The translations under genes were made by a program, and so were the position numbers. From a virus, in IMG/VR virus record IMGVR_UViG_3300012347_000097, positions 1 to 40,573 of that record: a stretch of DNA of 40,573 bases; one strand, 5' to 3'. Shown here in pieces: positions 7,353 to 26,183 of the stretch. Below the pieces are notes generated by a model that had not been told where the DNA came from, did no database searches, and was given only the letters and a program-made list of their open reading frames with translations. The stretch's first letter is position 1, and each line of letters begins with the position of its first letter.

Positions 7353-8182
7353 TGGGTCAATCAATATTTCCAGTTCCAGCAACACCTAATAATACGGTTC
7401 CATCTTTATTTTCTCTGCCTCATATGCCACCTGGTGTAACACTTAAAAATAGTTACACTTCCTCGACAAGCGGAATTACTGGTCTGCCAGACTGGGTTTT
7501 TGTTGTAATGGTGGGCGCTGGTGGAAACGGCGGTAATGGTGGCGGAGGTGCAGGAGGAGGCGGAGGCGGTGGTGGCGGTGTCATTATGGCTTGGGTTCCT
7601 AAATTTACTGCAGTAACTGTTGGCGCGACAGCAAGCCAGCCTACTTATGTGAACTCTGCTCCATACTACGTAGCACCTGGCGGTAACGGTGGAGAAGCAG
7701 GTGGCTCATCTAACGGCGGTCGTGGCGGAGATGGTGGCGCACTTGCGCTTACCCCGCCAACATCAACCTCCGTTTATTACTCTGGTGGTTCTGGTGGCAA
7801 CGGAAGTGGCCAAACAGGACAGGTTGGATATGCATCCACGACAGTAAGTGGCGGTGGCGCTGGTGGAGCAGGAACTAACCCTGGAAGCGGAAGCGGAAAT
7901 ACTGGCGGTGCTGGATATTATGCTGGAGGCGGCGGAAGCGGCTCTACAAATGGAAATGGTGGCGCAGGAGGAGCATCTACTGGCTACAGCAAGGCAGGCG
8001 GAACTGCAATAGTTACCACCAATGCTGCTGGCGCAGGTGGCGCAGGAATATTTGCTGATGGCGTAAGTGCATCTGGCACAACTGGTGGCGCTGGTGGCGC
8101 TGGCGGTGGTGGCGGAGGCGGTGGCGGTCGCGGTGGCGTAGGTGGCGCAGGCGGCCCTGGCGCTGTTTTCGTTTATTACTAA
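7352..8182 (+). CDS. Glycine-rich tail/fibre protein (276 aa), paralog of 6034..7023
   Basis: VFVVMVGAGGNGGNGGGG motif, GGx tracts and the C-terminal GAVFVYY. The architecture matches 6034..7023. Confidence 0.7.
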   Translation: MGQSIFPVPATPNNTVPSLFSLPHMPPGVTLKNSYTSSTSGITGLPDWVFVVMVGAGGNGGNGGGGAGGGGGGGGGVIMAWVPKFTAVTVGATASQPTYVNSAPYYVAPGGNGGEAGGSSNGGRGGDGGALALTPPTSTSVYYSGGSGGNGSGQTGQVGYASTTVSGGGAGGAGTNPGSGSGNTGGAGYYAGGGGSGSTNGNGGAGGASTGYSKAGGTAIVTTNAAGAGGAGIFADGVSASGTTGGAGGAGGGGGGGGGRGGVGGAGGPGAVFVYY

Positions 8183-8198
8183 AATAAATCATAACCCC

Positions 8199-8230
8199 TG
8201 AGCATGGGTCTAAACTGCTCATTTAACTTT
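8199..8230 (+). terminator. Weak stem-loop plus T-rich tail after the Gly-rich gene
   Basis: TGAGCA (8199-8204) pairs with TGCTCA (8216-8221), followed by TTTAACTTTT. Confidence 0.3.
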
Positions 8231-8247
8231 TCTACTTAAGGAGTAAC

Positions 8248-10482
8248 GTGGCTGGTCGCGACATAACAGAACCGATTCTGCACCCAATTGGAATTGAATC
8301 CACTGGTGCAATCTGGCAGAATACTGACATTGCCTATGACGTTGCTCTAGGTGGTATGCCGTTTATCCTTGCAACCAATGATGCACGCCCTAAACTTCGT
8401 GGCACAGCACCATTTAAGAAGGACCAGTTTGACAATGGCGCAGAAGCAGGAGAAGCATCCCTTACAGGATGGTGGCTCCGCTCACAGATGTCATTCCACT
8501 CTGGTGAGGGCATCAAGTTCTATGACCCAGCAACTACTGCTGAGGTAGGACACTATCGCTTTGCCGAGTCAGAAGGACTCGATGTATGGACAAAGGGTGA
8601 GACCAAACTTCTCAATAAGACTAACATCATTGGATACCCTGCAGCGGGCCTGCAGTCCAATGGTCGCTCAACCCACCATACTTCCTCTATCAAGTGGACA
8701 GTATCTGGAACTTTATACCAAGGCGTACTAGATGGTGGCGACTTTAACATTGTCCGCGTTACGAACACTGGGGCTATTCAGCCGCTTGTCGTATTGACTG
8801 GCACGCAAGATAAAATTTACTCAATGTGCAACGATGGCGAATATGTATACTACATTGTCAATGAAGTATCTGGTTCACTCAAGATGCACATGTACAAGAA
8901 GTCTCTTAACGCAGCAGTCGGCGATGCGCCGACCCTTATGTTCAACAACTCTGTCGTGGTATCCAACTCAACAATGGCTTACATTAAAGAGCGTATTGTT
9001 GCTGGCGTAAACAACGGCATCTATGAACTGACTGCAGTTTCATCATCTTTGCCTACGGCAGTATACGCACACCCAACTGCAAGCCATATTTGGTCATCGG
9101 TTGCAGCGTCAGGTTCAGCAATCTATGTATCTGGCTGGAACGGGTTACTCTCCAGTATTGTTAAGTTTACACTTACCACATCTGGTACTATGCCAACTTT
9201 GACTTCTGCTATCACAACTGCAGAACTTCCAGATGGCGAGCGCATCTACGCTCTCCGCTACTACCTAGGTCGTCTTATGATTGGCACACTTAAGGGTGTG
9301 CGTGCGGCAAGCATTTCAGAAAACGATGGTTCTGTAATTTATGGTCCACTTATTGTTGAGACACATCAGCCAGTATTTGGCTTTGCCTCACGACAGAGTT
9401 ATGTATGGTGTGCCTCTGGCACAACAACAGGCAAGCAGGGCTTGATTCGCATTGACTTGTCCAATGAACTTGAGCCACTTCGCTATGCTTATGCAAATGA
9501 CTTGCAGATTTCTACACCAATTGACGGTGGACAAACTGTATCAGTTGGGTTCCTCGGTGAGACCGATGAGATTTTCTTCTCTAACTGCTCATCTGCTGGT
9601 CGTGTAACACAGAGCATCACTAACAAGCAATTGACTGACAATGTGGCTACACTTACTACTGCAACAGCCCATAGTTACATGGTGGGTCAGGCTGTATACA
9701 TAACTGGAGTTGGCGCTCCATTTGATTCAGCAGCCAACTTCCCAGTCGGTAGCCATAAGATTATCACAGCAGTATCTACCGATATGCTTTCATTCAGTTA
9801 CGCAGTGACTAATGCTGATATTGCATCAACTGCTGTGTCACCTGCTGGAACTGCTTTTGCCGCAGGTACTGCATGCATTGAGTCTGCTACAGAACTTACT
9901 GAAACTGGCTATCTAACTACAGGTAACATTCGCTACAACACGCTAGAACCTAAGAACTTCAAGCGTCTTCTTGGGCGCGGAGACTTCACCTACGGCTCTA
10001 TGTCATTGCAGACAGTAGATGCCAAGGGTGTACAGTATGACCACATCACTTACGATGCTGGCATTGAACCAGTAGAAGTTACAACCTCTAGCCCATCAAG
10101 GGCTCAGGAGTATGTAGCCTACAAGTTTGTGTTGGCTCGTCATGGGGCAGACGTAACTAAGGGTCCAGTATTCAAGGGATACCAAGCAAAGTCTACAATC
10201 GCAACACCGCGTCAGCGGGTTATGCAGTTCTATGTCTACAATATGGATGTTGAAACAGACAGATACAATGTCGAGTTCGGCTACAATGGCCGAGCATTTG
10301 AACGCCAGATGCAACTTGAGGACATTGAAGAGTCAGGCGATATCATCACCTACCAGGACTTAAATACTGGTGAGTCTCGCCAGGTTCAAATCGAAAACAT
10401 CCAACTTATGGGAACCACACCACCAGATAAGGAAAACACTGGTTTTGGTGGAATCCTCCAGATTACAATTAGGACCGTATAG
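8248..10482 (+). CDS. Large tail / host-adsorption apparatus protein (744 aa)
   Basis: GTG start 5 nt after AAGGAG. Called from its size and its position between the fibre genes and the lysis cassette. No motif recognised. Confidence 0.6.
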   Translation: MAGRDITEPILHPIGIESTGAIWQNTDIAYDVALGGMPFILATNDARPKLRGTAPFKKDQFDNGAEAGEASLTGWWLRSQMSFHSGEGIKFYDPATTAEVGHYRFAESEGLDVWTKGETKLLNKTNIIGYPAAGLQSNGRSTHHTSSIKWTVSGTLYQGVLDGGDFNIVRVTNTGAIQPLVVLTGTQDKIYSMCNDGEYVYYIVNEVSGSLKMHMYKKSLNAAVGDAPTLMFNNSVVVSNSTMAYIKERIVAGVNNGIYELTAVSSSLPTAVYAHPTASHIWSSVAASGSAIYVSGWNGLLSSIVKFTLTTSGTMPTLTSAITTAELPDGERIYALRYYLGRLMIGTLKGVRAASISENDGSVIYGPLIVETHQPVFGFASRQSYVWCASGTTTGKQGLIRIDLSNELEPLRYAYANDLQISTPIDGGQTVSVGFLGETDEIFFSNCSSAGRVTQSITNKQLTDNVATLTTATAHSYMVGQAVYITGVGAPFDSAANFPVGSHKIITAVSTDMLSFSYAVTNADIASTAVSPAGTAFAAGTACIESATELTETGYLTTGNIRYNTLEPKNFKRLLGRGDFTYGSMSLQTVDAKGVQYDHITYDAGIEPVEVTTSSPSRAQEYVAYKFVLARHGADVTKGPVFKGYQAKSTIATPRQRVMQFYVYNMDVETDRYNVEFGYNGRAFERQMQLEDIEESGDIITYQDLNTGESRQVQIENIQLMGTTPPDKENTGFGGILQITIRTV

Positions 10483-11829: not shown

Positions 11830-12021
11830 ATGTCAATTGAACTAGAAGAATATACCCTACCAGAGCACATGTCGTACTCTGCGTTCACTACATACCTAAC
11901 CTGTGGCTACCAATATTACCTCGGTAGACTACTCAACAAGAAAGAATCACCGTCTGTTTGGTCTGTCGGAGGTACGGCATTCCACTTAGCATGCGAGAAT
12001 TGGGACAAGGAAAATGGCTAA
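11830..12021 (+). CDS. Cas4/RecB-family PD-(D/E)XK exonuclease, N-terminal fragment (63 aa)
   Basis: MSYSAFTTYLTCGYQYYLGRLL...WSVGGTAFHLACENW matches the N-terminal Cys plus the GTAxH motif of phage Cas4-like exonucleases. It stops after WDKENG. Confidence 0.65.
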   Translation: MSIELEEYTLPEHMSYSAFTTYLTCGYQYYLGRLLNKKESPSVWSVGGTAFHLACENWDKENG

Positions 12022-12421
12022 AAAGACACTACTTGGCAAGTTGAAGGAAGAAGTAATCGCTAACCCTACTGGAAGAACAGACGATGAAGTTCTTGGCGAA
12101 CTCATCGATATGGCTACCACAGAGGCTCAGTTGCAGTACCTGACACGTAAGAACCACATCGATGACCCAACTAAGGTCAGAGACCTTGAGTGGAAACTCA
12201 GTTCTAAGCAACGCGAAGTGGATAGTTTTGCCGAGAGATACACCAGTACTCTTGCTCAGAACAGGACAATTCAGGAGACTATCAACCTACTCAGCAAGAT
12301 GATGGTAGACCAGAACCTCAAGACAGTAGAACTGCTAACAGATAAACTGACAGAGCAAGCAACCAAGTCAGTGCCAACTAAATCAAAGGATGAATATGAC
12401 TGCTGTGAAGACTGCGGCTAG
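12014..12421 (+). CDS. Embedded coiled-coil ORF splitting the nuclease gene (135 aa)
   Basis: Track ORF whose ATG overlaps the stop of the N-fragment and whose end (CCEDCG*) overlaps the start of the C-fragment. No nuclease motif seen. Confidence 0.55.
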   Translation: MAKKTLLGKLKEEVIANPTGRTDDEVLGELIDMATTEAQLQYLTRKNHIDDPTKVRDLEWKLSSKQREVDSFAERYTSTLAQNRTIQETINLLSKMMVDQNLKTVELLTDKLTEQATKSVPTKSKDEYDCCEDCG

Positions 12422-13019
12422 CCTGTTCCAGGCTGCATGGGATGAGAGCAAGGGCGATATTGACCTAAGCACAGCCCGTGTAGGAGGTCGCGAGACCAAG
12501 GCTAACCCTAACAAGGAAGACGTAAACTTCTGGCTTGCAGCAGGTCCACGATGGGTAGATGGCTACATTGCTTGGCGCAAGGCTAACCCTCATTGGAAAA
12601 TCTGGACAACACCAGAAGGTGCTAAGGCCATCGAACTCGAACTCAACCCAATTGTGGCTGGTGTTCAAGTCAAGATGGTCATTGACCGCATCTTTGAAGT
12701 TGATGGTCAGTTGGTCATCTGTGACCTTAAGACGTCTCAGAAGACACCCGCTAACACACTCCAACTCGGCTTCTATAAACTAGGAGTCGAACAGACATTC
12801 GGACGTGAGGTTAAGTGGGGTAACTACTACATGGCTCGAGGCTCAGGAGTCTCAGAGTTCGTAGACCTATCAGAGTATACATTTGACAAGATGGAGTATC
12901 TGATAAAACAATTTGACACTGCACGTCGTGCAGGTGTATTCTTACCCAACACAAACAATTGCCAGTACATGTGCGGTTTAACGGACTACTGTCAATTCTC
13001 TACAAAGAAGGAAATCTAA
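12390..13019 (+). CDS. Cas4/RecB-family PD-(D/E)XK exonuclease, C-terminal fragment (209 aa)
   Basis: Catalytic core IDRIFEVDGQLVICDLKTSQK, QLGFY, and the C-terminal cysteine cluster CQYMCGLTDYC. Confidence 0.7.
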   Translation: MNMTAVKTAASLFQAAWDESKGDIDLSTARVGGRETKANPNKEDVNFWLAAGPRWVDGYIAWRKANPHWKIWTTPEGAKAIELELNPIVAGVQVKMVIDRIFEVDGQLVICDLKTSQKTPANTLQLGFYKLGVEQTFGREVKWGNYYMARGSGVSEFVDLSEYTFDKMEYLIKQFDTARRAGVFLPNTNNCQYMCGLTDYCQFSTKKEI

Positions 13020-17278: not shown

Positions 17279-18018
17279 AGACAATAGTCTGTGTATCTGA
17301 CCTACAGATACCGTATCACGATAAGCGAGCAGTTAATAACCTCGCTAAGTTTATCAAGGCTTACAAGCCTACTGAGGTAGTATCAGTTGGTGACGAGATG
17401 GATATGCAGACTATCTCTAAGTGGGCAAAGGGTACACCCCTTGAATATGAGCGTTCTATCGGACGGGATAGAGACGAAACAACTCGGGTACTCGAGCAAC
17501 TGAAAATCAAGCACATCATCAGGTCGAACCACACCGACCGCCTGTTTAACACAGTGATGATGCGTTCGCCAGGACTGCTTGGGCTACCCGAGTTGGAACT
17601 CCCAGAGTTCCTTCGACTCGATTCAATTGGTGCTACATACCATGAGAAGCCTTACGAGTTAGCACCCAACTGGTTGCTTATGCATGGAGATGAAGGCGCT
17701 ATGAACTCTACTGGAGGGCTTACTGCCCTCGGTCTAGCAAAGCGTACTGGTAAGTCAGTTGTATGTGGTCACACGCACCGCATGGGTCTGGCTCATCATA
17801 CGACAGCCTACACAGGCGGTACTGCTAAGACTGTATGGGGATTAGAAGTTGGAAACCTCATGGACTACCGCAAGGCAAAGTATATTAAGGGTGGCTTGTT
17901 CACCTGGCAGCAAGGATTTGGAATCTTGTACGTAGACGGCAAGACCGTCATACCAGCAACAATTCCAATCGCTCGTGATGGCTCATTTATTGTAGAAGGA
18001 AAGGTGTGGGGACGATGA
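17275..18018 (+). CDS. Calcineurin-like metallophosphoesterase (247 aa)
   Basis: SDLQIPYHD, VGDEMD, SNHTDR, HGDE and GHTHR are the canonical metallophosphatase motifs. Confidence 0.8.
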   Translation: MKTIVCVSDLQIPYHDKRAVNNLAKFIKAYKPTEVVSVGDEMDMQTISKWAKGTPLEYERSIGRDRDETTRVLEQLKIKHIIRSNHTDRLFNTVMMRSPGLLGLPELELPEFLRLDSIGATYHEKPYELAPNWLLMHGDEGAMNSTGGLTALGLAKRTGKSVVCGHTHRMGLAHHTTAYTGGTAKTVWGLEVGNLMDYRKAKYIKGGLFTWQQGFGILYVDGKTVIPATIPIARDGSFIVEGKVWGR

Positions 18019-18716
18019 ACTGGGAACGTATTGAACCTTGGAACTACATCGTCACTAACGTAGCCTCTGAATACCACCGTAAGTACGATATGGTTGACTT
18101 GGACGATATCCAACAGGAATTGTACCAATGGTTCTTAGAGCATCCTAACAAGTTGGACGATTGGGAAGCAATCGGTCACAAGGATGCAAAGAACTTGCTA
18201 TATCGCTCACTACGTAATCAGGCTCTTGACTACTGTCAGAAGTGGAAGGCTAAGTCAATTGGATACGAAGTATCCGACTTGTTCTACTACGAGCCTGATG
18301 TAGTGGAGGCATTGCTTCCAGCAATCCTTCGTAAAGAGTTCGCAGTAATGCCAGTGCTTAACCTCGGTAAAATAGGAACGCCACCAGCACCGTCAGAAGG
18401 CGGTAACATGATGGCGATGATGGTCGAAATCGACAATGCATACTCCAAGTTAAGTACCGAGGATAAGGCAGTACTCTTCTTGAAGTATGCAGAGGCATTT
18501 GACTTTGCTGAGATTGCTAAGGAGTTAGGTATTGGTTCAGAAGATGCGGCGCGTATGCGCCATAACAGAGCAATCAAGAAGTTGATTACTCGCATTGGAG
18601 GATTCAAACCTTACTTAGAGAATGATACTCCCAATGAAGCCCCCGACGACCCAGACGAAGTTGTAAGCGCCGATAATGACGGCGAGCAAAGCGAACGGGA
18701 AGACGACGGCGAATAG
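18015..18716 (+). CDS. Phage-encoded sigma-70-family (ECF-like) sigma factor (233 aa)
   Basis: ATGA-coupled. Region-2-like DIQQELYQWFLEH...LYRSLRNQALDY and region-4 HTH LSTEDKAVLFLKYAEAFDFAEIAKELGIGSEDAARMRHNRAIKKL. Confidence 0.7.
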   Translation: MNWERIEPWNYIVTNVASEYHRKYDMVDLDDIQQELYQWFLEHPNKLDDWEAIGHKDAKNLLYRSLRNQALDYCQKWKAKSIGYEVSDLFYYEPDVVEALLPAILRKEFAVMPVLNLGKIGTPPAPSEGGNMMAMMVEIDNAYSKLSTEDKAVLFLKYAEAFDFAEIAKELGIGSEDAARMRHNRAIKKLITRIGGFKPYLENDTPNEAPDDPDEVVSADNDGEQSEREDDGE

Positions 18717-19137: not shown

Positions 19138-19228
19138 CCTTTTCTACTCCTAGTTCTTTTAGTAGGTGCTCGATATCTGCAATGAGTTGGTCACGATACG
19201 CTAGTTCTGCTGGTGAGTATGTTGTCAT
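19124..19228 (-). CDS. Mini-ORF (34 aa), low confidence
   Basis: MTTYSPAELAYRDQLIADIEHLLKELGVEKVEEL. TAATG-coupled to the lipoprotein gene and overlaps the next start. Confidence 0.3.
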   Translation of the reverse strand: MTTYSPAELAYRDQLIADIEHLLKELGVEKVEEL

Positions 19229-19644
19229 TACTTTCCAATCTGTGTCTTGAGGTCGAAGTCAGGAATGATTACATCTGGCTTGAAGATTACCTTGTAACGG
19301 TAAGCACTTACAGTTGCTCCATCAATCTGCTCTACTAAGTAAGATACGTTGTCACTTAGACCGAGGAAGTGCTTCTTGTACTGCGATGCACCGACCTTGC
19401 AGGTCACTTCGAGTGAGCCAGATAGTGCAGAACTACCAGACTCTACCGAGCATAGACCCTGTATCTCTAGCAGATACTTATCTGTGATTCCGTTGAAGAA
19501 TACAATGCGACGATTGACTTCGAACTGTTCTGCTGCAACCGACAGGTTGCGTGCTGCTACGTCTGCATCACTACTACAACTTGATAGTGATACCGCTCCT
19601 GCTACTGCCACTAGGGCAAGCGCTAACTTCTTCTTGTGCTTCAT
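19228..19644 (-). CDS. Secreted lipoprotein (138 aa)
   Basis: Signal peptide MKHKKKLALALVAVAGAVSLSSC with the lipobox LSSC. Confidence 0.75.
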   Translation of the reverse strand: MKHKKKLALALVAVAGAVSLSSCSSDADVAARNLSVAAEQFEVNRRIVFFNGITDKYLLEIQGLCSVESGSSALSGSLEVTCKVGASQYKKHFLGLSDNVSYLVEQIDGATVSAYRYKVIFKPDVIIPDFDLKTQIGK

Positions 19645-19808
19645 TTATCTCCCTTGTTTAAGTCGATTAACCAGTTCCATTCACGATAGAATAGAATTAT
19701 ACTAAACCCATAGTCGGCCTCATCCCAAGGATACCAGCCTGCATAGAGTACATCACGCCAACCGTCAGGGTTGGAGATGCGTCGCGTGCCATCATATTTG
19801 ATTCTCAT
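19641..19808 (-). CDS. Trp/Tyr-rich mini-protein (55 aa, below the track cutoff)
   Basis: Hand translation: MRIKYDGTRRISNPDGWRDVLYAGWYPWDEADYGFSIILFYREWNWLIDLNKGDK. ATGA-coupled to the lipoprotein gene. Confidence 0.45.
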   Translation of the reverse strand: MRIKYDGTRRISNPDGWRDVLYAGWYPWDEADYGFSIILFYREWNWLIDLNKGDK

Positions 19809-19810
19809 CC

Positions 19811-19987
19811 TTATCCTCCTGTCGAGTAAAAGCCTGGGCCATTGAACTTGATTGGTGTTACATCATATACACGTTTTAACTTGTCACCGCACTTCTCACA
19901 GAAGTAGTCGGGCTCATCATCTGCCATAGGTCGGCGGATAATAACCTTCTCGCCTTCCCCTGGGCATTCATACTCGTATGTTGCCAC
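19811..19987 (-). CDS. FmdB-family zinc-ribbon protein (58 aa, GTG start, below the track cutoff)
   Basis: Hand translation: (M)ATYEYECPGEGEKVIIRRPMADDEPDYFCEKCGDKLKRVYDVTPIKFNGPGFYSTGG. It carries the YEYxC...CxxCG...GxGFY signature. Confidence 0.65.
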   Translation of the reverse strand: MATYEYECPGEGEKVIIRRPMADDEPDYFCEKCGDKLKRVYDVTPIKFNGPGFYSTGG

Positions 19988-20273
19988 GTTGTGCCTCCAT
20001 TCGTTGCTCTAGGATTGACTTAGTACGTACTGGTACACGTGTATGATTATCATACAGTGCTTTCATAGTTGCTTGCGTTCTTGCCCTGATTTCTTCTAGT
20101 CTATCATATTTCTGCATATTATCCAAAATCTCGTACGCAATACGTCGTGCCTCAATCTTGCCGTAGCCGAAGTTCTCTACGAGGTTATCCTTTATCTTCT
20201 TTACCTTGGGTGGTTCGGCGTAAGCACCTTCGTAGAAGTGCTCAACCTTGCCATTCCTAACTCGTGTTATCAT
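19968..20273 (-). CDS. Hypothetical protein (101 aa)
   Basis: Track ORF. Its 3' end contains palindrome copy 1. Confidence 0.5.
   Translation of the reverse strand: MITRVRNGKVEHFYEGAYAEPPKVKKIKDNLVENFGYGKIEARRIAYEILDNMQKYDRLEEIRARTQATMKALYDNHTRVPVRTKSILEQRMEAQRGNIRV
20040..20056. promoter_or_regulatory. 17-bp palindrome copy 1: TGTATGATTATCATACA
   Basis: Perfect palindrome, 52 bp upstream of the FmdB-like start (19987). Confidence 0.7.
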
Positions 20274-20515
20274 TTTTTCTCCTTCTCAACTAAAGGGTAT
20301 TCATCAGCCCAGTCAGTTATCTTCTTATCAAGTGCATAGGCTGCCTTGGTAGCCTTGACAAAGGCTTGGTGGGATACCTTGAGTTCATCAATCAAGTCCT
20401 CATAAGATAGATTATCCTTGAGCATAGCAGGGTCACGTAGTACAGCATGACCCGCCAAGTCTTGCGCTAGTTCTAGAGATTCTCTTGCTATGTCGAACGC
20501 TTCTTGACGATTCAT
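20270..20515 (-). CDS. Hypothetical protein (81 aa)
   Basis: Track ORF, ATGA-coupled on both sides. Confidence 0.5.
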   Translation of the reverse strand: MNRQEAFDIARESLELAQDLAGHAVLRDPAMLKDNLSYEDLIDELKVSHQAFVKATKAAYALDKKITDWADEYPLVEKEKK

Positions 20516-20919
20516 TAGTACCAGTTATTCTTCTTGTGGAATTTCCATGCCTCGCATGGCGTGCCGTATCTATGGTAGATGTAGTCCAACCCTCTATCAA
20601 TTTGGATAGTTGGTGGTGTCAGTGGTGACATACCCAACAACTGCGGGATACCGCCTGCATGCTTACCCATCACCTTCTCTGGATTGAGAGCAGTAGGTTT
20701 CCATGCTGATTCCTTACCCCACATAGATGCCAAGCACTTGTACTGCTTATGCGCCCAGTCATTAAGTGAATCCTTGGCGTAAGCCTTGCTATCTCTCTCA
20801 CTCCATGTGCGCTCGGTCTTGACTTGCTTGGTGTCCTGCATACTTCCCACCTCGAACATGAGGCTACCAGTTACAAGTGCGATGCACAATGCGATTACTA
20901 CGTTAGCATTTTTATACAT
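20515..20919 (-). CDS. Membrane-anchored transglycosylase-like (SLT/APF C-terminal type) protein (134 aa)
   Basis: N-terminal TM helix VVIALCIALVTGSLMF, then CLASMWGKESAWKPTALN...GGIPQ...GLDYIYHRYGTPCEAW...NNWY. Confidence 0.6.
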   Translation of the reverse strand: MYKNANVVIALCIALVTGSLMFEVGSMQDTKQVKTERTWSERDSKAYAKDSLNDWAHKQYKCLASMWGKESAWKPTALNPEKVMGKHAGGIPQLLGMSPLTPPTIQIDRGLDYIYHRYGTPCEAWKFHKKNNWY

Positions 20920-21313
20920 CTTTACCCTCCAGATATGGTCTCATTCTTTCGTACACGTCCATAGCCTTACCCTTCTCTGATTGTTGAGCGAAGTCACTAC
21001 GTACGTGACCTAACTTCATCAACCTCTCGCCAGCGTGTAACCCACCCCATATACCGTAGGGTAGATTGTCTTCTTCCATGCCTTCTGCAAGGCACGCATT
21101 CTTGATTGGACACGCCTCACACAGCGCTACTGCTTCCTTTGCCTCTTGAATTATCGCAAGGAACTTTGTAGTACTCGGCCTGCCTGTACCAAAGTCTACG
21201 AACCAGATATCTGGATTGATATGGTCCGAGCATAACCCTCTGGGGCTAGTCGTCAAAGAACCCGTCATGGAGCCTATCAGGGTCGATACCGTCATAGTCA
21301 TCCTCCTCTTCAT
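20912..21313 (-). CDS. whiB: WhiB-family Fe-S transcription factor
   Basis: Four Cys residues (LCSDH, CEAC, then C after x5) and the GIWGG turn. The start is uncertain; alternative ATGs include 21268. Confidence 0.85.
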   Translation of the reverse strand: MKRRMTMTVSTLIGSMTGSLTTSPRGLCSDHINPDIWFVDFGTGRPSTTKFLAIIQEAKEAVALCEACPIKNACLAEGMEEDNLPYGIWGGLHAGERLMKLGHVRSDFAQQSEKGKAMDVYERMRPYLEGKDV

Positions 21314-21377
21314 CTAGTTCTAGGTCATCATCAAGGGCGATGTCATCGCCTTCCATCCATAGTGGGTCTCTAGCCAT
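21246..21377 (-). CDS. Highly acidic mini-ORF (43 aa), low confidence
   Basis: MARDPLWMEGDDIALDDDLELDEEEDDYDGIDPDRLHDGFFDD. It overlaps the 5' extension of the whiB ORF. Confidence 0.3.
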   Translation of the reverse strand: MARDPLWMEGDDIALDDDLELDEEEDDYDGIDPDRLHDGFFDD

Positions 21378-21636
21378 TTACTCCTCCTAAGATTGCATCT
21401 AATACGTACTCGAAGTCTTCATACTCGTGCCATTCGTTTGGCGATAAGCCATCCCAGAATATCTCGAATCCTTCATCCACATCCCAGTACAGCGTGCCAC
21501 TATACTCTGCGCCCGAGTTTGTGTCGGACATCGAGAACGTGCGTCGATAGGATGCTAACTGCTTCCGATACTGCTTGACGTCAAACTTATCAAGCATCTC
21601 CTTCTTACTAATTGGCCTTACGTTCGAGGCGTTCAT
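21370..21636 (-). CDS. Hypothetical protein (88 aa from MNASNVRP; track start 21681 possible)
   Basis: Track ORF. The internal ATG lies 58 bp downstream of palindrome copy 2. Confidence 0.5.
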   Translation of the reverse strand: MNASNVRPISKKEMLDKFDVKQYRKQLASYRRTFSMSDTNSGAEYSGTLYWDVDEGFEIFWDGLSPNEWHEYEDFEYVLDAILGGVNG

Positions 21637-21775
21637 AATCCATCTCCTCCAATTCCTTGAGCATAAGTCTAGCATCTGCAATCTTAGTGTTCAATGTATG
21701 ATTATCATACACTCCGTTACTGGATGTAACGTAGATGTAGTCAATCAGCAGGTCGCGTATCTTCTCTATCTCCAT
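21608..21775 (-). CDS. Hypothetical protein (55 aa from MEIEKIRD)
   Basis: TAATG-coupled to the amidotransferase-like gene. Contains palindrome copy 2 in its coding region. Confidence 0.4.
   Translation of the reverse strand: MEIEKIRDLLIDYIYVTSSNGVYDNHTLNTKIADARLMLKELEEMDYERLERKAN
21695..21711. promoter_or_regulatory. 17-bp palindrome copy 2: TGTATGATTATCATACA
   Basis: Perfect palindrome, 58 bp upstream of the ATG at 21636. Confidence 0.7.
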
Positions 21776-22584
21776 TAGAATGTGAACTCCTTCTGTGAAT
21801 ACCACTGGTTACTCTTGGTGTGGTTGGCTGGTACATAGCATAGGCAGGTGTCGCCGTAACTACCTTGGCAGTCGTGGCAAGTGTAGCACATCTCGCAGTA
21901 GTACGGGTTGGCGTCCTCGAACGCTTGAGCACCGCACGCTTGGCAGTCAGCATCTTGGTCAGAGAACGCATCAGGAAACGCAGACTTGACAGGTGAGGCA
22001 GTTGATTCCCATGACCACGTAGACTTCTTGTATGTGGTATTAGACCACCAGATACCGTCATTGTCCCAGTGACCTAACTCCTCATTGACGATATAGCAAT
22101 CGTACTTAGCGGCTGGGTCAAGGGTGAAGATAACTAACTTGTTACCACTAGCCCACTTGCTGACCATGCCGAGTACATTGTCGTCGTCGAGGGCAGAGAC
22201 ACCGCCTATGCTAGGTAGAATATCCTCCGCGAATACTCTAGTATCACTGCGCTTGTCTCCGCCCGCAATCTTAACGTCGAGCACACCGTTGTGCGCTAGA
22301 TAGGTATCGTCACGACCGCCTACCTTGAACGGGTGACAGTTAGCCTCGTTCTTTACACCATGCGTAGCAAAGCGTGCATGGAACATGGCGTACCCGTCTG
22401 GGTATTGCTTGCGTACTTCGAGGAACTCCTTGATTAACTTACGAGCAGACATACTGTGACCCGTCACGATACCGTTGGGTGTAATGATAGCGTAGCCGAA
22501 GCCGTGTGGGTTGTTACATGAGGCACACTCGAGGTCTGCCTTCTTAGGTGTTGAGTTAGGTGAAGCAACTAATAGTAAGCACAT
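21775..22584 (-). CDS. Class-II glutamine-amidotransferase-like Ntn thiol hydrolase with a Cys-rich C-terminal tail (269 aa)
   Basis: N-terminal MC (Cys nucleophile), HARFATHG...NCHPF...LAHNG, and the C-terminal CQAC..CEMC..CHDC..CLC. Confidence 0.75.
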   Translation of the reverse strand: MCLLLVASPNSTPKKADLECASCNNPHGFGYAIITPNGIVTGHSMSARKLIKEFLEVRKQYPDGYAMFHARFATHGVKNEANCHPFKVGGRDDTYLAHNGVLDVKIAGGDKRSDTRVFAEDILPSIGGVSALDDDNVLGMVSKWASGNKLVIFTLDPAAKYDCYIVNEELGHWDNDGIWWSNTTYKKSTWSWESTASPVKSAFPDAFSDQDADCQACGAQAFEDANPYYCEMCYTCHDCQGSYGDTCLCYVPANHTKSNQWYSQKEFTF

Positions 22585-22602
22585 AATTTATCCTTTGGTT
22601 AG

Positions 22603-22619
22603 TGTATGATAATCATACA
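22603..22619. promoter_or_regulatory. 17-bp palindrome copy 3: TGTATGATAATCATACA
   Basis: Perfect palindrome, 18 bp upstream of the amidotransferase-like ATG (22584). It contains the amidoligase stop codon. Confidence 0.7.
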
Positions 22620-23806
22620 GTTGTGAGAGTTGGGATGATGCGGTTGATACGTTCTGTTAGTTCTGGATAGGTCTCTGCATTACTGATGATGTAAGCGATA
22701 AAGTTCTCACGCTTAAGAGCACCATCTTTGATGTCTTGCAGGGAGAGTCGGCGAGTATACTCAACGCTGGCGTGCGCTAGTGAAATCTGTGCCTTGACTA
22801 CGTTCTTGTTGATTGAACTCCTAAAGATACGCATCTCTAGGGTGTGGGCGTTCTGTGTATTGACGGCAGAGTAACGGTCAGAGGCGCGACCATGCTCAAT
22901 CTTATTCTTGAATGACTTGTAAGCAACCCACTTGCGCTCACCGTCGACAACTACCGAGGTGTTGGCTACTACGTCATCATACTTAGCCCAGCGTGCAGAG
23001 TTACGACCTGCTAACTCGGAGAAGAAGTACTCATTAGAGTAGACGAGGTTAAGGAAGCGGTGCATATGAGCACCACCACTAAACCCTGTGCGTGAGATAT
23101 GGATATGTAGACCAGCGGTGCTGGCATCCCATGCTCGCATCTTGTGGACGTCGCGCAGTGTATCTAGTACACCCCATAGTTCATGCGCCTCATTCTGGTA
23201 GTAGTCATGACTCATAGGGTGAGTCACTAACTCCATACCACAGTTGAGAGAGCCATCACTCTTGAGATAGGCGTGGTCGGTATCTTCTAGCATATGAGCA
23301 GTCTCAGCCGCTTGACGTAGTATGGATGTATCGCCATGTGGTGACTCCATCTCTATCTCTATGCCAAAGAATAGACGTTCATCCTTATCGGTAGAGTGGA
23401 ACACGGGGTCAGGGCGGTAACTGTAATCATGAATCTCATGAATACTATCCTCGCAACTGTCGCATCCGTCCACGTTGTACTCGTCGCAGTACTCGCAGTA
23501 GGTTGCATAGTTCTCAGTACATGACTCGCAGAATGACTCACTTCTATCTTGGATATAGATAGTATAGTCGCTACTCCACTCATTACATGAGTCGCAGTAG
23601 TGTGCATAGTAGTCGGTGCAAGCCTCGCACCATAACTGGTCATCTACTGTGGTGTAGTTCTCGTGACCTACGTCGCTCGTAGTCGAACAGCGCTCGCAAG
23701 TTCTGAAACAATCAGAACACGCTAAGCGACCATCTTCTGTTTCGTAAGCGTCATCTTCGGTCAGGCTTGTTGCACATACATCACATTCAAGTGTGTTTTC
23801 GGTCAT
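22613..23806 (-). CDS. Amidoligase (Amidoligase_2 / carboxylate-amine ligase type) with an N-terminal array of eight CxxC pairs (397 aa)
   Basis: The core motifs LFFGIEIEMES and AGLHIHISR match my recollection of the amidoligase family. The N-terminal ~125 aa contain CDVC, CSDC, CERC, CEAC, CDSC, CESC, CEYC and CDSC. Confidence 0.7.
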   Translation of the reverse strand: MTENTLECDVCATSLTEDDAYETEDGRLACSDCFRTCERCSTTSDVGHENYTTVDDQLWCEACTDYYAHYCDSCNEWSSDYTIYIQDRSESFCESCTENYATYCEYCDEYNVDGCDSCEDSIHEIHDYSYRPDPVFHSTDKDERLFFGIEIEMESPHGDTSILRQAAETAHMLEDTDHAYLKSDGSLNCGMELVTHPMSHDYYQNEAHELWGVLDTLRDVHKMRAWDASTAGLHIHISRTGFSGGAHMHRFLNLVYSNEYFFSELAGRNSARWAKYDDVVANTSVVVDGERKWVAYKSFKNKIEHGRASDRYSAVNTQNAHTLEMRIFRSSINKNVVKAQISLAHASVEYTRRLSLQDIKDGALKRENFIAYIISNAETYPELTERINRIIPTLTTV

Positions 23807-23829
23807 TGCCTTATCCTTTCGATTAACTG

Positions 23830-23846
23830 TGTATGATTATCATACA
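23830..23846. promoter_or_regulatory. 17-bp palindrome copy 4: TGTATGATTATCATACA
   Basis: Perfect palindrome, 23 bp upstream of the amidoligase ATG (23806). Confidence 0.7.
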
Positions 23847-23879
23847 TCAGGCGGTGCTTATTAAGTTATAGGTAGAACC

Positions 23880-24053
23880 TTACACTCTTGCCAGTTTAGT
23901 GTCAATAATCGCGTCACTAATTTTTGAGCGTAACTCCTGCACTTCCAAGGTGAGAGCCTTGAAATCGTTACGCTTATGCTTATCTTCCTCGGCACGTAAA
24001 GCCATGCGAATCACTTCGACTTCGCGCTCGGTCAGGTCAAGTAGTAGGCTCAT
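23880..24053 (-). CDS. Small helical protein (57 aa, below the track cutoff)
   Basis: MSLLLDLTEREVEVIRMALRAEEDKHKRNDFKALTLEVQELRSKISDAIIDTKLARV. ATGA-coupled. Confidence 0.45.
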   Translation of the reverse strand: MSLLLDLTEREVEVIRMALRAEEDKHKRNDFKALTLEVQELRSKISDAIIDTKLARV

Positions 24054-24193
24054 AGTACCACCGTAGCCAATACGCCAGCAATGGCGTCGTCGAGTCTATC
24101 CTGCACGTCAGACCACTCTTGGTCGGTCATGTTTGTGTTGAGAATCTCCTCAATTTCTTCACGAGATACTACATTCTCCCATTGTCCGTTCAT
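24050..24193 (-). CDS. Small acidic protein (47 aa, below the track cutoff)
   Basis: MNGQWENVVSREEIEEILNTNMTDQEWSDVQDRLDDAIAGVLATVVL. ATGA-coupled on both sides. Confidence 0.45.
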   Translation of the reverse strand: MNGQWENVVSREEIEEILNTNMTDQEWSDVQDRLDDAIAGVLATVVL

Positions 24194-24345
24194 GACTGAT
24201 TCTCCTCAAGTGATAGGGCGTAAGACTTCCACTCTGAAAGTCGCTCGGTTAGTTTCCAATTTCTTACTGCGGTTGTGATTACTAGCGTTGTGGACATAAG
24301 GAGAGCGACGCTCGCCCAAAATATGTCGGCTACTTCTAGGTACAT
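24190..24345 (-). CDS. Small membrane protein (51 aa, below the track cutoff)
   Basis: MYLEVADIFWASVALLMSTTLVITTAVRNWKLTERLSEWKSYALSLEENQS. One TM helix. AAAGGAG lies upstream of the start. Confidence 0.45.
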   Translation of the reverse strand: MYLEVADIFWASVALLMSTTLVITTAVRNWKLTERLSEWKSYALSLEENQS

Positions 24346-24365
24346 CTTAACTCCTTTGCTAAAGG

Positions 24366-24382
24366 CGTATGATTATCATACA
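24366..24382. promoter_or_regulatory. 17-bp palindrome copy 5: CGTATGATTATCATACA
   Basis: The 15-bp core is perfect. It lies 20 bp upstream of the ATG at 24345 and directly downstream of the tRNA-like element. Confidence 0.7.
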
Positions 24383-24386
24383 CCAG

Positions 24387-24451
24387 CGCTTGCCGTTGGA
24401 ATCGAACCAACGCGGGGAACCTTCGCAAGCGGTTACGCCCACCGCAAGGGC
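24387..24451 (-). other. tRNA-like element (perfect T-arm plus acceptor-like stem; no canonical cloverleaf)
   Basis: The - strand reads GTTGG-TTCGATT-CCAAC, flanked by the GCTTGC/GCAAGC stem, with a D-arm-like GCGG-TGGGCGTAA-CCGC upstream. It is only ~65 nt and I could not fold an anticodon arm. Confidence 0.35.
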
Positions 24452-24519
24452 ATAACTTCGACCAACAAGAGAATACTATCTTAGTGCGGTAACTAAGTCA
24501 ATTTACGCGGGAAACTATT

Positions 24520-24660
24520 TTAAGCCATGCCGAGCGCCTTGAGTCGGTCAAGGTTGGGCTTGGTGCGGTTCTCATCTTCCGCCTTATTCTTTGCTATCTG
24601 CTCGCGCACGTCAGCCGTAAGGCGGGCGATTGCTAGTTCTGCTTCTTCCAATATGTCCAT
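24520..24660 (-). CDS. Small helical protein (46 aa from MDILEE)
   Basis: Internal ATG of track ORF 24520..24717. The upstream codons are just palindrome copy 6 translated (ALYDNHT). Confidence 0.45.
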   Translation of the reverse strand: MDILEEAELAIARLTADVREQIAKNKAEDENRTKPNLDRLKALGMA

Positions 24661-24681
24661 GCTAACTTGCTCCGTTCTTAT

Positions 24682-24698
24682 CGTATGATTATCATACA
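24682..24698. promoter_or_regulatory. 17-bp palindrome copy 6: CGTATGATTATCATACA
   Basis: The 15-bp core is perfect. It lies 21 bp upstream of the ATG at 24660. Confidence 0.7.
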
Positions 24699-24851
24699 AG
24701 GCTCGCGCCCTGTTCAACTGATAAAGAGAACTTTACTCCTACCCCCTAACTTATGCAAGTCATGGCGGAAATTATTTTCTGGCGAAGTCATGCGCGTCAT
24801 ACCTCGGCCACATGAAAGTTTGTGTTGGTTTGTGTCGGCCGCTCCCCACGC

Positions 24852-24866
24852 GGTCGGGCGTGTCGC
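24852..24866 (+). repeat. 15-bp direct repeat GGTCGGGCGTGTCGC, copy A
   Basis: Identical to 25800..25814. Lies just beyond the terminator of the 211-aa gene. Confidence 0.8.
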
Positions 24867-24872
24867 GCAGGG

Positions 24873-24908
24873 ATAAAAAAATAACCCCCGACCCGTTAGG
24901 GTCGAGGG
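24873..24908 (-). terminator. Rho-independent terminator of the 211-aa gene
   Basis: On the - strand, CCCTCGACCC-TAAC-GGGTCGGGGG is followed by TTATTTTTTTATCC. Confidence 0.75.
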
Positions 24909-24927
24909 CTATCCTTTGCGCTAGGGG

Positions 24928-25563
24928 TTAGGCGTTAGCCTTTGCGCGGGTGTTCTTCTCGATATTGACCAACACGCCGAGGAGGGCGCGGAGGGTGTCG
25001 AGGTCGGCGGTAGTTGCCTCCTTGAGATTCTTCCCTCCGACTCGGCGGATAGCCTCAAGGGAGGTAGCGAGTGCGAGTTCAAGGGTAAGCGGTGCGACCT
25101 TTGGAGAGTTCTTTCCGCCGTTCTTGCGGGCGTTGGTTTGTGTTGGTGATTCTTCTTCTAGTTGCTCAACGTTTGCAACGTTTGCGATTACGGCGCGAGA
25201 TTCCTTGCCATGATTACGGCGGACACGCTCCGCGAGTTTTAGGAGGTCGGCTACTGGCTTATCCTTTGCACCCTCCACGGTGCGGATAATCTCGGCAAGG
25301 ATAGGGAAGTCTTGCGCGTGTGACTTGCGGATAGTTGGGGCAGTTCCGACGGTTGAGGCGATAGCCTCCTGAACGGTGCGGAGGTTGGTTTGTCCGTTGG
25401 TCATGAGGTCGGCGGTGTTGAGGATAAAGGCGAGTTCTCCGTCATGGTTGATGAGGCTTGAGTACTCGGCAGAAATTGTCGCGGTGACTGAATCTGCATA
25501 AGCGGTGAAAGTAGCGTTTTTAACTGACTTTGGAGCGGTGTTCTTTGTTGTCTTTGTTGCCAT
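24928..25563 (-). CDS. Hypothetical protein (211 aa), first gene downstream of the SOS boxes; visibly more G+C-rich than its neighbours
   Basis: Track ORF forming a monocistronic unit between palindrome copy 7/LexA box 1 and its own terminator. No motif recognised. Confidence 0.65.
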   Translation of the reverse strand: MATKTTKNTAPKSVKNATFTAYADSVTATISAEYSSLINHDGELAFILNTADLMTNGQTNLRTVQEAIASTVGTAPTIRKSHAQDFPILAEIIRTVEGAKDKPVADLLKLAERVRRNHGKESRAVIANVANVEQLEEESPTQTNARKNGGKNSPKVAPLTLELALATSLEAIRRVGGKNLKEATTADLDTLRALLGVLVNIEKNTRAKANA

Positions 25564-25659
25564 GATTTTTACATCCTTTGCGGTTAGGTCAGCCCGTTTG
25601 GCTGATGAGAGAACAATACCATCATTCCCGAGATTTCAACACCATTCGCGGGTCGAGTT

Positions 25660-25676
25660 TGTATGATAATCATAAA
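25660..25676. promoter_or_regulatory. 17-bp palindrome copy 7: TGTATGATAATCATAAA (one mismatch), abutting LexA box 1
   Basis: Read directly. It lies 96 bp upstream of the ATG at 25563. Confidence 0.65.
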
Positions 25677-25692
25677 TCGAACAGATGTTCGA
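25677..25692. promoter_or_regulatory. LexA (SOS) box 1: TCGAACAGATGTTCGA
   Basis: Perfect match to the actinobacterial/Gram-positive consensus TCGAAC-N4-GTTCGA. Confidence 0.7.
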
Positions 25693-25799
25693 AAGTCGAT
25701 TTATCGACAATTCCCTATCCCCCTATTTAGTTGAAATTTCAACTACTTTGTTCTCCCTGCGATTATCCCATGAGATGAGGTTACTGCAAAGTAACTTAG

Positions 25800-25821: not shown

Positions 25822-25837
25822 TCGAACAGATGTTCGT
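25822..25837. promoter_or_regulatory. LexA (SOS) box 2: TCGAACAGATGTTCGT
   Basis: Same 14-bp core CGAACAGATGTTCG as box 1. Confidence 0.65.
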
Positions 25838-25870
25838 GTGACGTGGGTCACATTGCGGAAGGTTGGGAAC

Positions 25871-25967
25871 CTGAGAGTTTCCTGAGAATTATCTGAGAAG
25901 AACGGCTCTAGTTTTGGCTGAGAGATTCCTGAGAAATTCCTGATAGCCCCCCGAGAGTTTGCTGAGG
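25871..25967 (+). repeat. Iteron-like array of CTGAGA-type hexamers at 11-bp phasing (two blocks)
   Basis: Block 1 starts at 25871, 25882 and 25893. Block 2 starts at 25918 and 25929 (CTGAGA), 25940 (CTGATA), 25951 (CCGAGA) and 25962 (CTGAGG). Confidence 0.75.
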
Positions 25968-26147: not shown

Positions 26148-26167
26148 CGCTCAAATAAAAATATTTT

Positions 26168-26183
26168 CCGAACTGCTGTTCGG
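26168..26183. promoter_or_regulatory. LexA (SOS) box 3: CCGAACTGCTGTTCGG
   Basis: CGAAC-N4-GTTCG core within a 16-bp palindrome. Confidence 0.6.

Follow-up and report, generated by a model that had tools for sequence, protein, structure and literature searches.

Short palindromes repeated many times within one genome have already been described for lytic actinophages, most prominently for the Cluster O mycobacteriophages, without a protein being assigned to them. In the latter non-temperate phages (Corndog and its relatives), the repeat TGTTCGG-NNN-CCGAACA occurs in more than 30 copies, about one-third of which are intragenic, and both its binding protein and its function are unassigned (PMC4351075). 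The stoperators of Cluster A phages, served by an immunity repressor of the L5 gp71 type, are another system of this kind (PMC9283540, PMC6550527). The stretch of DNA analysed here, hereafter called the window, is the whole 40,573-bp contig of IMG/VR record IMGVR_UViG_3300012347_000097 and belongs to a lytic-looking freshwater actinophage. It contains seven copies of a 17-bp palindrome with the consensus YGTATGAT-W-ATCATACR, all in the leftward (minus-strand) early gene block. For this repeat, a specific candidate partner can be named, namely the product of the first gene of that block (24928..25563, minus strand), an all-alpha protein of 211 amino acids (aa) that belongs to no known family. 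The reading that we favour, and consider fairly probable, is that the palindromes are operators for a dimer of this protein and that occupied sites turn the early block down.

The window repeat resembles that of Cluster O in several respects. Both are 17 bp long, with invariant inverted arms and a variable centre, and occur in many intergenic and intragenic copies in a non-temperate actinophage. The Cluster O repeats are denser in a leftward block of small genes and, like the window sites, are predicted to bind a dimeric protein; their GTTCGG half-sites also occur in some relatives of the window phage. The two systems differ in that the window has seven copies (7–11 in the phages studied here) in one block, as opposed to more than 30 copies of TGTTCGGNNNCCGAACA throughout the Cluster O genome, and in that the window repeat has a candidate protein partner and comes in several variants of specificity. 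With the Cluster A stoperators, the window sites have in common that one short sequence is repeated many times within transcribed regions, mainly in small gaps between genes, that the site and the protein encoded by the phage have diverged jointly, and that a block of transcription is the proposed action. Stoperators, however, are asymmetric 13–14-bp sequences, which are bound by a monomer and oriented with transcription, whereas the window sites are 17-bp palindromes. Stoperators also extend over both genome arms, while scans of the window and of ~77 kb of terminase and structural DNA from relatives revealed no site beyond the early block. Finally, they serve lysogenic immunity, whereas the window phage displays no sign of lysogeny and its protein is unrelated to Rep. 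Many-site dyads were already known from Cluster O; what is new is that the protein belongs to a different family, that the dyads keep to one block, and that the specificity switches form a clear series.

A pattern scan placed the seven copies at 20040, 21695, 22603, 23830, 24366, 24682, and 25660, exactly where an earlier note on this DNA had located them. That note described all seven as perfect palindromes, which overstates the case: the pattern TGTATGATWATCATACA is matched exactly at the first four positions, while the copies at 24366, 24682, and 25660 each have one outer mismatch. The plus-strand sequence of copies 24366 and 24682 is CGTATGAT...ACA, that of copy 25660 is ...ATCATAAA, and a 14-nucleotide (nt) core, GTATGATWATCATA, is common to all seven. 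Dinucleotide-preserving shuffles gave an expectation of 0.00 exact matches and of 0.07 matches with up to three mismatches, compared to the seven observed. Since no eighth match was found in the 40.6-kb window at up to four mismatches, the confinement of the palindrome to positions 20040–25676, and thereby to the leftward block as proposed earlier, is real. No conservation outside the 17 bp was seen among the window copies. For copies 1 to 7, the next minus-strand start codon follows after 52, 58, 18, 23, 20, 21, and 96 nt, respectively, in line with the previously reported range of 18–96 bp; copies 3–6 lie directly 5' of a ribosome-binding site, 18–23 nt before the start codon.

Three promoter-like sequences were read from the minus strand of this region. 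P1 (25613–25639), which precedes the first gene, is of the extended −10 kind (TTGAAA, 15 nt ending in TGg, TATTGT), and its equivalent, ggtgTTG(A/C)AA...TGnTAnnnT, is present in relatives. P2 (24730–24758; TTGCAT-17-TAAAGT) and P3 (24473–24501; TTGACT-17-TAGTAT) are SigA-type promoters; the latter lies before a tRNA-like element, and promoter units homologous to P2 are flanked by sites in relatives. The first gene is directly followed by a strong intrinsic terminator, a hairpin with U-run at 24876–24917 (minus strand; −29.4 kcal/mol, z = −4.7), and therefore forms its own transcription unit. The palindrome itself does not have the properties of a terminator, as the hairpin of the window motif reaches only −4.8 kcal/mol and is not followed by a U-run.

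The first two sites are intragenic. Site 1 (20040..20056, a perfect palindrome) lies within the 3' part of a 101-aa open reading frame (ORF; 19968–20273), 52 nt before the GTG start of the Zn-ribbon gene, and has orthologues in relatives with the same palindrome type (type A). Site 2 (21695..21711, perfect) is located inside a conserved 55-aa ORF (21608–21775), which in relatives reads YDYHT or YDNHT at this place, so that the centre base switches the residue while the DNA dyad is retained. The peptide YDNHT is read through the element by these two ORFs and by ORF 24520–24717, and had been taken as a flag for mis-called 5' extensions. ORF 24520–24717 is indeed a spurious extension, but the 101-aa and 55-aa ORFs have homologues in relatives that likewise read through sites of their own, which makes copies 1 and 2 truly intragenic. 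Site 3 (22603..22619, perfect) holds the TGA stop codon of the amidoligase gene, as noticed before, and the ATG of the glutamine-amidotransferase-like gene follows 18 nt on. Site 4 (23830..23846, perfect) is intergenic, 23 nt before the amidoligase ATG. The remaining three have one outer mismatch each. Site 5 (24366..24382) comes right after the tRNA-like element, 20 nt before an ATG, a layout that is the same in relatives of types A, B, and C. Site 6 (24682..24698) begins 31 nt downstream of the P2 −10, and 21 nt separate its end from the ATG with which a 46-aa gene starts. Site 7 (25660..25676) is located 20 nt upstream of the P1 −35 and 96 nt from the first gene start, and it abuts a LexA box, TCGAACAGATGTTCGA at 25677–25692, again as the earlier note had it.

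The motif is conserved in relatives, for which the earlier note had suggested a search. An exact-motif scan of IMG/VR returned 32 stretches, and those with multiple copies proved to be syntenic relatives with 50–90% amino-acid identity, which carry 5–11 copies, all in the homologous block. The copies in relatives occur downstream of the LexA box and upstream of P1, on the flanks of two tandem ~100-bp promoter units, after the tRNA-like element, at stop-codon/ribosome-binding-site junctions, and inside the amidoligase gene, the amidotransferase-like gene, and the 55-aa ORF. Among 100 type-A sites with non-identical contexts, positions 2–8 and 10–16 are 92–100% conserved and 11 of these 14 positions are invariant. 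The outer bases are more relaxed (T in 67 and C in 31 sites at position 1; A in 77 and G in 23 at position 17). Y1 and R17 vary independently, and the C/A combination, which is unpairable in RNA, occurs in 21 sites. This set therefore displays the dyad symmetry with independently conserved half-sites expected of an operator for a dimer. At the centre, the early strand has an A in 81 of the 100 sites.

Within genes, the site is preserved even where the protein has to change for it: the amidoligase of relatives reads VYDNQT where that of the window reads VYSNEY, and the 3' end of the amidoligase gene also accommodates a type-C site. The retention of the dyad while its centre base flips between Asn and Tyr points to selection on the nucleic acid, not on the peptide. 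In eight relatives, sequence was fetched on both sides of the terminase gene; 68 sites were present on the early side and none in ~77 kb of terminase and structural DNA. Examination of 133 sites from 17 phages revealed a SigA-type −35 located 20–22 nt downstream for 11% of them (0.4% for random positions), with the site centre at about −65, and a ribosome-binding site plus start codon 14–26 nt downstream for 36% (6.5% for random positions). Both enrichments indicate that the sites bracket promoters and fill gene junctions. Helical phasing of the ~100-bp site spacing was considered and dropped, as spacings of 94–113 bp showed no consistent phase. Many contigs with the first gene (L136, L138, L139, and other short ones) end a few hundred bases past it, at the tandem site/promoter units. 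The repeats probably break short-read assemblies, and copy numbers in fragmentary contigs are thus lower bounds.

The palindrome at a given position is not the same in all phages. In relative L001, the window motif is missing and TGTCGGGATATCCCGACA is present at the positions of copies 4 and 3, roughly at that of copy 2, and before a transglycosylase-like gene. In L047 and L048, the same layout is filled by ten copies of TGTATTAA-W-TTAATACA. Further types came from 80 loci sampled, with the terminase as anchor, out of more than 599 matches in IMG/VR: GTTCGGCTAACCGAAC, GTTCGGTTAACCGAAC, GGTCGGC-NN-GCCGACC, GTCGGGYTAGCCCGAC, and CACTATAT-A-ATATAGTG. At the junction before the ATG of the amidotransferase-like gene alone, 12–21 nt upstream, the sequence is TGTATGATWATCATACA, GGTCGGCTAGCCGACC, GTTCGGTTAACCGAAC, GTTCGGTTAGCCGAAC, CACTATATAATATAGT, or GTCGGGTTAGCCCGAC, depending on the phage, while phages that lack the first gene have no palindrome at this junction. 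Overall, at least ten palindrome types occupy the same positions across relatives. One such switch is seen between L082 and L091, which have nearly identical terminases, 88% identity in the control region, and 73% identity in early genes. Their first genes share no nucleotide similarity, and each of the five orthologous sites in the alignment shows one and the same symmetric change, GTTCGG versus GGTCGG with its mirror on the other arm; one of these sites adjoins a 50-nt identical flank. A uniform orientation of the asymmetric type G centre was also considered but dropped, since both orientations occur in L070 and L072.

The type of palindrome follows the first gene. The comparison covered 36 distinct loci whose early region spans at least 4 kb. 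Homologues of the window first gene (family F1) are present in ten of them, all of which contain 5–10 copies of a 17-bp AT-rich palindrome with an odd centre. A second family at the same place, F0, is present in seven loci, all with 3–9 copies of a 16-bp GC-rich even palindrome. A multi-copy palindrome is therefore found in 17 of 17 loci with either family and in none of the 15 loci without any of three first-gene families. The third family, SprT-like (HExxH, Zn-ribbon), accounts for the four remaining loci, which have CTTAAG-centred repeats and were treated separately. In the subgroup with this first gene (L053, L054, L077, L078, L095, and L113), 3–7 copies of the CTTAAG-centred motif (GTCTTAAGACA or ACTTAAGACAGGAG) are present, partly merging with ribosome-binding sites; the repeat looks like a different, start-associated kind. 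Neither the first gene nor the repeat was found in the cultured phage F5.

F1 and F0 are homologous to each other (hhalign probability 96%, E = 4e-9, 177 columns). The best-conserved segment of the first-gene product, GTAPTIRKSHAQDFPIL (window G73–L88, also delimited as residues 73–89), differs by palindrome type and reads LLTSQIEALPVF for type B, IRPAHAQFF for type C, ITSSQVRTLPTF for type D, VKVSHVEGLPTM for type E, VKSSHAPALPTW for types F and G, and VKHGHIPSI for type I. The sites thus co-vary with the proposed binding protein, in that at least ten types are each paired with a first-gene variant; ancestry is partly controlled in this comparison. The family, whose members have ~200 aa, comprises 77 clusters at 50% identity among 1.84 billion representative proteins. 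As a blind test, contigs of four divergent members were fetched out of these clusters. Three of the four were positive, with new palindromes flanking the first gene: three copies of TGTCTGA-AAA-TCAGACA in L136, five copies of TGTCGGA-RAW-TCCGACA in L137, the first one right after a LexA box, and two copies of YGTACGAT-W-ATCGTACR in L139. The fourth contig, L138, offered little flanking sequence and no palindrome; it contains the direct repeats ATGTCCG(T/A)TTT (six copies) and TTCAACACAAAC (five copies) at 7600–8852. On the terminase tree, type A appears in two separate clades and type I groups with a phage that has none of the three first-gene families. Other candidates for the specificity partner were rejected. 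The region-4 helix of the phage sigma-like protein (18006–18716) is the same across palindrome types, and the identity of WhiB, the Zn-ribbon protein, and a 57-aa protein does not track the type. This speaks against the phage sigma factor and WhiB, which the earlier note had named as possible binders.

The tails of the 211-aa protein are basic and rich in Lys, Pro, and Ala, as is typical of actinobacterial DNA-binding proteins. A structure model made with a deeper alignment is all-alpha and of high confidence, with a predicted local distance difference test (pLDDT) score of 90.9 and a predicted template modelling score of 0.67. From the genomic pattern and the basic tails, and not from a recognised fold, we infer that the first-gene protein binds the sites and that its target is DNA rather than RNA.

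The earlier note had interpreted the palindrome as a phage-specific promoter/operator. The operator part, namely a site for a dimeric regulator, is well supported by the constancy over ~100 sites, the concerted swaps, and the co-variation with one gene. The promoter part is not supported. A palindrome that is itself a promoter, with TATGAT as the −10, possibly read by the phage sigma factor and giving one transcript per gene, could draw on the agreement of TATGAT with the actinobacterial TANNNT pattern, on the position of copies 3–6 at 18–23 nt before start codons, and on the sigma-like protein encoded by the phage. We consider this highly improbable. The position equivalents TGTCGGGATATCCCGACA, GTTCGGTTAACCGAAC, and GGTCGGCCAGCCGACC do not contain TANNNT, and the same is true for types B, D, E, F, and G; bona fide −35/−10 promoters are located beside and not within the sites, which in relatives lie ~21 nt upstream of a −35 or downstream of promoters; the sigma region-4 recognition helix does not change with the type; and perfect dyad symmetry is not a promoter property. 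Separate SigA-type promoters, copies inside conserved coding sequence, and GC-rich variants without a −10-like hexamer together argue that the element is not a promoter. Also, no evidence was found for the proposed division of the block into at least seven separately controlled units. An equally slim chance is given to a site for a global regulator of the host, for example a Fur-family protein. The central ATGATAATCAT corresponds to the core of the classical Fur box, and the LexA boxes show that host regulators are used in the same control region. However, at least ten palindromes are present at the same positions in close relatives, each tracking a phage gene, and the type is not constant among relatives whose terminases are almost identical and which probably infect the same hosts.

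An element acting at the RNA level deserves more attention, although it is unlikely. It would be a transcribed hairpin 5' of ribosome-binding sites, recognised by the first-gene product or a host factor and acting in translation, mRNA processing or stability, or antitermination. The enrichment of sites 14–26 nt before a ribosome-binding site and start codon fits this explanation, as do the symmetric base changes between types, which keep pairing, and the bias of the centre base to A on the transcribed strand. If the tRNA-like element was processed, the hairpin of site 5 or its equivalents, which come right after that element, would stand at the new 5' end. There is also the analogy to lambda N, the first gene of an early operon with type-specific boxB hairpins. 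This analogy holds for the first-gene position and the co-variation of types but not for the 7–11 copies per operon, in place of one per promoter-proximal leader, or for the sites upstream of promoters, and neither an arginine-rich motif nor a boxA-like partner was seen. Moreover, the hairpin energies of position-equivalent types differ widely (−4.8, −2.5, and −11.1 kcal/mol), the bases that would form the loop vary no more than those of the stem, and the outer pair is a non-pairing C/A in 21 of the 100 type-A sites. In the window and many relatives, a site lies upstream of the first promoter, and others are placed ~21 nt upstream of a −35. Slightly less likely still are DNA sites with a non-transcriptional role, such as a ParB/KorB-like complex, replication or partition, nuclease protection or targeting, or recombination linkers that shuffle cassettes. 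The more than 30 similar 17-bp dyads of Cluster O are mostly not linked to promoters, and their authors reasoned that binding must serve something other than control of initiation (PMC4351075). The sites here are found at gene boundaries, and the gene content between them varies among relatives. Yet they are limited to one transcription block, enriched beside its promoters, and spread over 6 kb, in contrast to the clustered sites of an origin or centromere; no sites border the only clear cassette indel (19228–19808) between the window and its closest relative; and the first-gene protein has no nuclease, recombinase, or ParB signature.

Several observations weigh against operators bound by the first-gene protein as well. 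No Pfam family was found for any of 82 members of the first-gene family, and sequence profile searches of the 211-aa protein in PHROGs and PDB returned nothing. A PDB fold search with the pLDDT 90.9 model gave a best match of E = 1.3, thus none that is significant, and an earlier model (pLDDT 74.8) had no match in PDB or BFVD at E ≤ 0.001. Neither a canonical helix-turn-helix nor another DNA-binding domain was detected in the protein. The phages with none of the three first-gene families mostly form one clade of the terminase tree, and F0 forms another one; independent transitions are therefore few, and the association of gene and site is confounded by shared ancestry. The bias of the centre base is not explained by a symmetric dimer. 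Any perfect DNA palindrome is also an RNA hairpin, and most sites are transcribed, many of them immediately before a ribosome-binding site. Relatives differ in where the first site stands with respect to P1, upstream in some and at about +20 to +40 in others, and none of the sites overlaps a core promoter, where simple repressors usually bind. A classical role as immunity repressor is without support, because no prophage copy was found in 185,579 species genomes and no integrase, partition gene/ParA, or repressor family was found among the ~49 window ORFs scanned. A terminase search of the same genomes gave four matches, all of which were phage-sized contigs of metagenome-assembled genomes.

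Operators for the first-gene protein nevertheless remain our preferred reading. According to it, the unit made up of P1, the first gene, and the strong terminator would be expressed and its product would accumulate. A dimer would then bind the half-site YGTATGAT on each arm of every site, that is beside early SigA-type promoters, at junctions, and in a few places inside genes, along the ~6-kb early block. Occupied sites would turn the block down once the protein has accumulated, by looping or occlusion around promoters and by roadblocks within the operon, so that the early block would be shut off with a delay, perhaps when the phage sigma-like protein assumes control. The effect is probably a damping of early transcription, with the direction of control being a guess: the sites have near-consensus promoters (TTGACT-17-TAGTAT and similar) beside them, which should work without an activator, and this makes repression likelier than activation.

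This arrangement can be compared with other regulators that use repeated operators. In lambda, Cro and CI offer a small regulator encoded by the first gene of an early unit, 17-bp dyad operators with an odd centre, and specificity types that differ between related phages. The lambda operators are six in number and overlap core promoters, whereas here the sites do not overlap any −35/−10, extend through the operon, and pair with a protein in which no helix-turn-helix was detected. Phage phiC31 is reported (Ingham et al. 1994, Wilson et al. 1995) to have conserved 17-bp inverted repeats in many intergenic regions, which are bound by the c repressor; it differs in being temperate and in that its repressor belongs to a known family. 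KorB of plasmid RK2 is a global repressor that binds 12 OB palindromes, scattered over the replicon at variable distances from promoters, and acts at a distance, but it is a ParB-family protein. The start-associated sequences of Cluster K, a feature also mentioned in PMC4351075, are asymmetric 13-bp motifs that include the ribosome-binding site and lie 3–8 bp before start codons. The window palindrome, by contrast, is separate from the ribosome-binding site, lies 18–96 nt before starts, and also occurs within genes or upstream of promoters.

The control region upstream of the first gene contains further elements. Two identical LexA-box-like 15-mers, TCGAACAGATGTTCG, are located 145 bp apart (25677–25692 and 25822–25836), and a third, weaker box, CCGAACTGCTGTTCGG, at 26167–26182. 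The actinobacterial LexA consensus is TCGAAC-N4-GTTCGA; the palindrome itself does not match it, and the true boxes are those that adjoin at the first two positions. A LexA box near the first palindrome recurs in relatives, with gaps of 0, ~5, 10, ~33, and ~45 nt. These boxes place SOS sites at the early control region of a lytic-looking phage. The end of the upstream LexA box is overlapped by TGTGACGTGGGTCACA (25837–25852), a perfect TGTGA-N6-TCACA dyad, the CRP/GlxR-type consensus; part of it, CACGTCACA, is also present in relatives L016 and L097. Two more dyads upstream of the LexA box, GTCGATTTATCGAC and TAGTTGAAATTTCAACTA at 25695–25708 and 25728–25745, have counterparts in relatives of other types (L047/L048, L049, L082, L091, and L111) and are conserved independently of the type-switching palindrome. 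Near the terminase gene, CTGAGA(R)-type direct repeats with an 11-bp period extend over 25871–25965 and could be a packaging site or another binding array; in relatives, CCTGAGAGTTTCCTGAGAG is found between the LexA box and the first palindrome. The tRNA-like element between P3 and site 5 (24386–24470, minus strand) was called by ARAGORN as an 85-nt tRNA-Arg(gcg) with an odd anticodon position. It falls below the threshold of the Rfam tRNA model, while three plus-strand tRNAs are above it. Relatives of all types have a T-arm-like GGTTCGATTCC, GAGTTCGATTCTC, or GGTGCGAGTCCTGC at this position, and in every case their own palindrome comes immediately after it.

Pfam scans of the ~49 window ORFs defined the gene content of the phage. 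The rightward genes encode the terminase, portal, and structural proteins (with matches to an SU10 adaptor and T7-like tail proteins), followed by a Cas4-like nuclease, a DnaB-like helicase, a primase, and the sigma-like protein. The leftward block (25563–18718) encodes the 211-aa protein, small ORFs, the amidoligase, the glutamine-amidotransferase-like protein, WhiB, a Zn-ribbon protein, and a VG64-like protein. The PD-(D/E)XK (Cas4-like) nuclease is apparently split (11830–13019, plus strand), with ORF 11830–12021 matching profile positions 1–49 and ORF 12390–13019 positions 83–247. A 135-aa ORF in between (12014–12421) has no homologue in any relative, while its flanks are 67–90% conserved; this may represent a mobile insertion (intron, intein, or homing-endonuclease-like) or a frameshifted gene. 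The VG64-like gene (PF25682, E = 1.5e-52) and a 55-aa ORF at 19228–19808 (minus strand) were not present in any of the relatives fetched, suggesting that the window phage acquired them recently from a different lineage of actinophages; the former resembles mycobacteriophage genes annotated as recombination directionality factor.

The terminase is 76% identical to two 39-kb records that match the 'Ca. Planktophila' phages E7 and F5, the closest cultured relatives, which also encode whiB and a sigma factor (PMC10202952). No close relatives of the early block were found among GenBank phages, where only the terminase retrieves the unannotated phages E7 and F5. The phage family comprises more than 599 related contigs in IMG/VR, and the host of its cultured relatives is a member of an actinobacterial order abundant in freshwaters. 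Nature already offers at least ten variants of the putative operator at identical positions, so that proteins and sites could be mixed and matched. If the proposed regulation is true, this module would reveal the way in which these phages time their early programme or defend it and would add a new DNA-recognition scaffold. More tentatively, the first-gene family might constitute a new fold of sequence-specific DNA-binding regulators with a dozen or more exclusive, TGT...ACA-framed operator types, spread over strictly lytic phages that infect very abundant freshwater Actinobacteria; the types would act like immunity groups without lysogeny. In that case, a resident phage would silence the early block of a co-infecting phage of the same type, a pressure that would drive the switching. 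The unexplained multi-copy dyad repeats of other lytic actinophages would then have a function, and a set of orthogonal repressor/operator pairs would become available.

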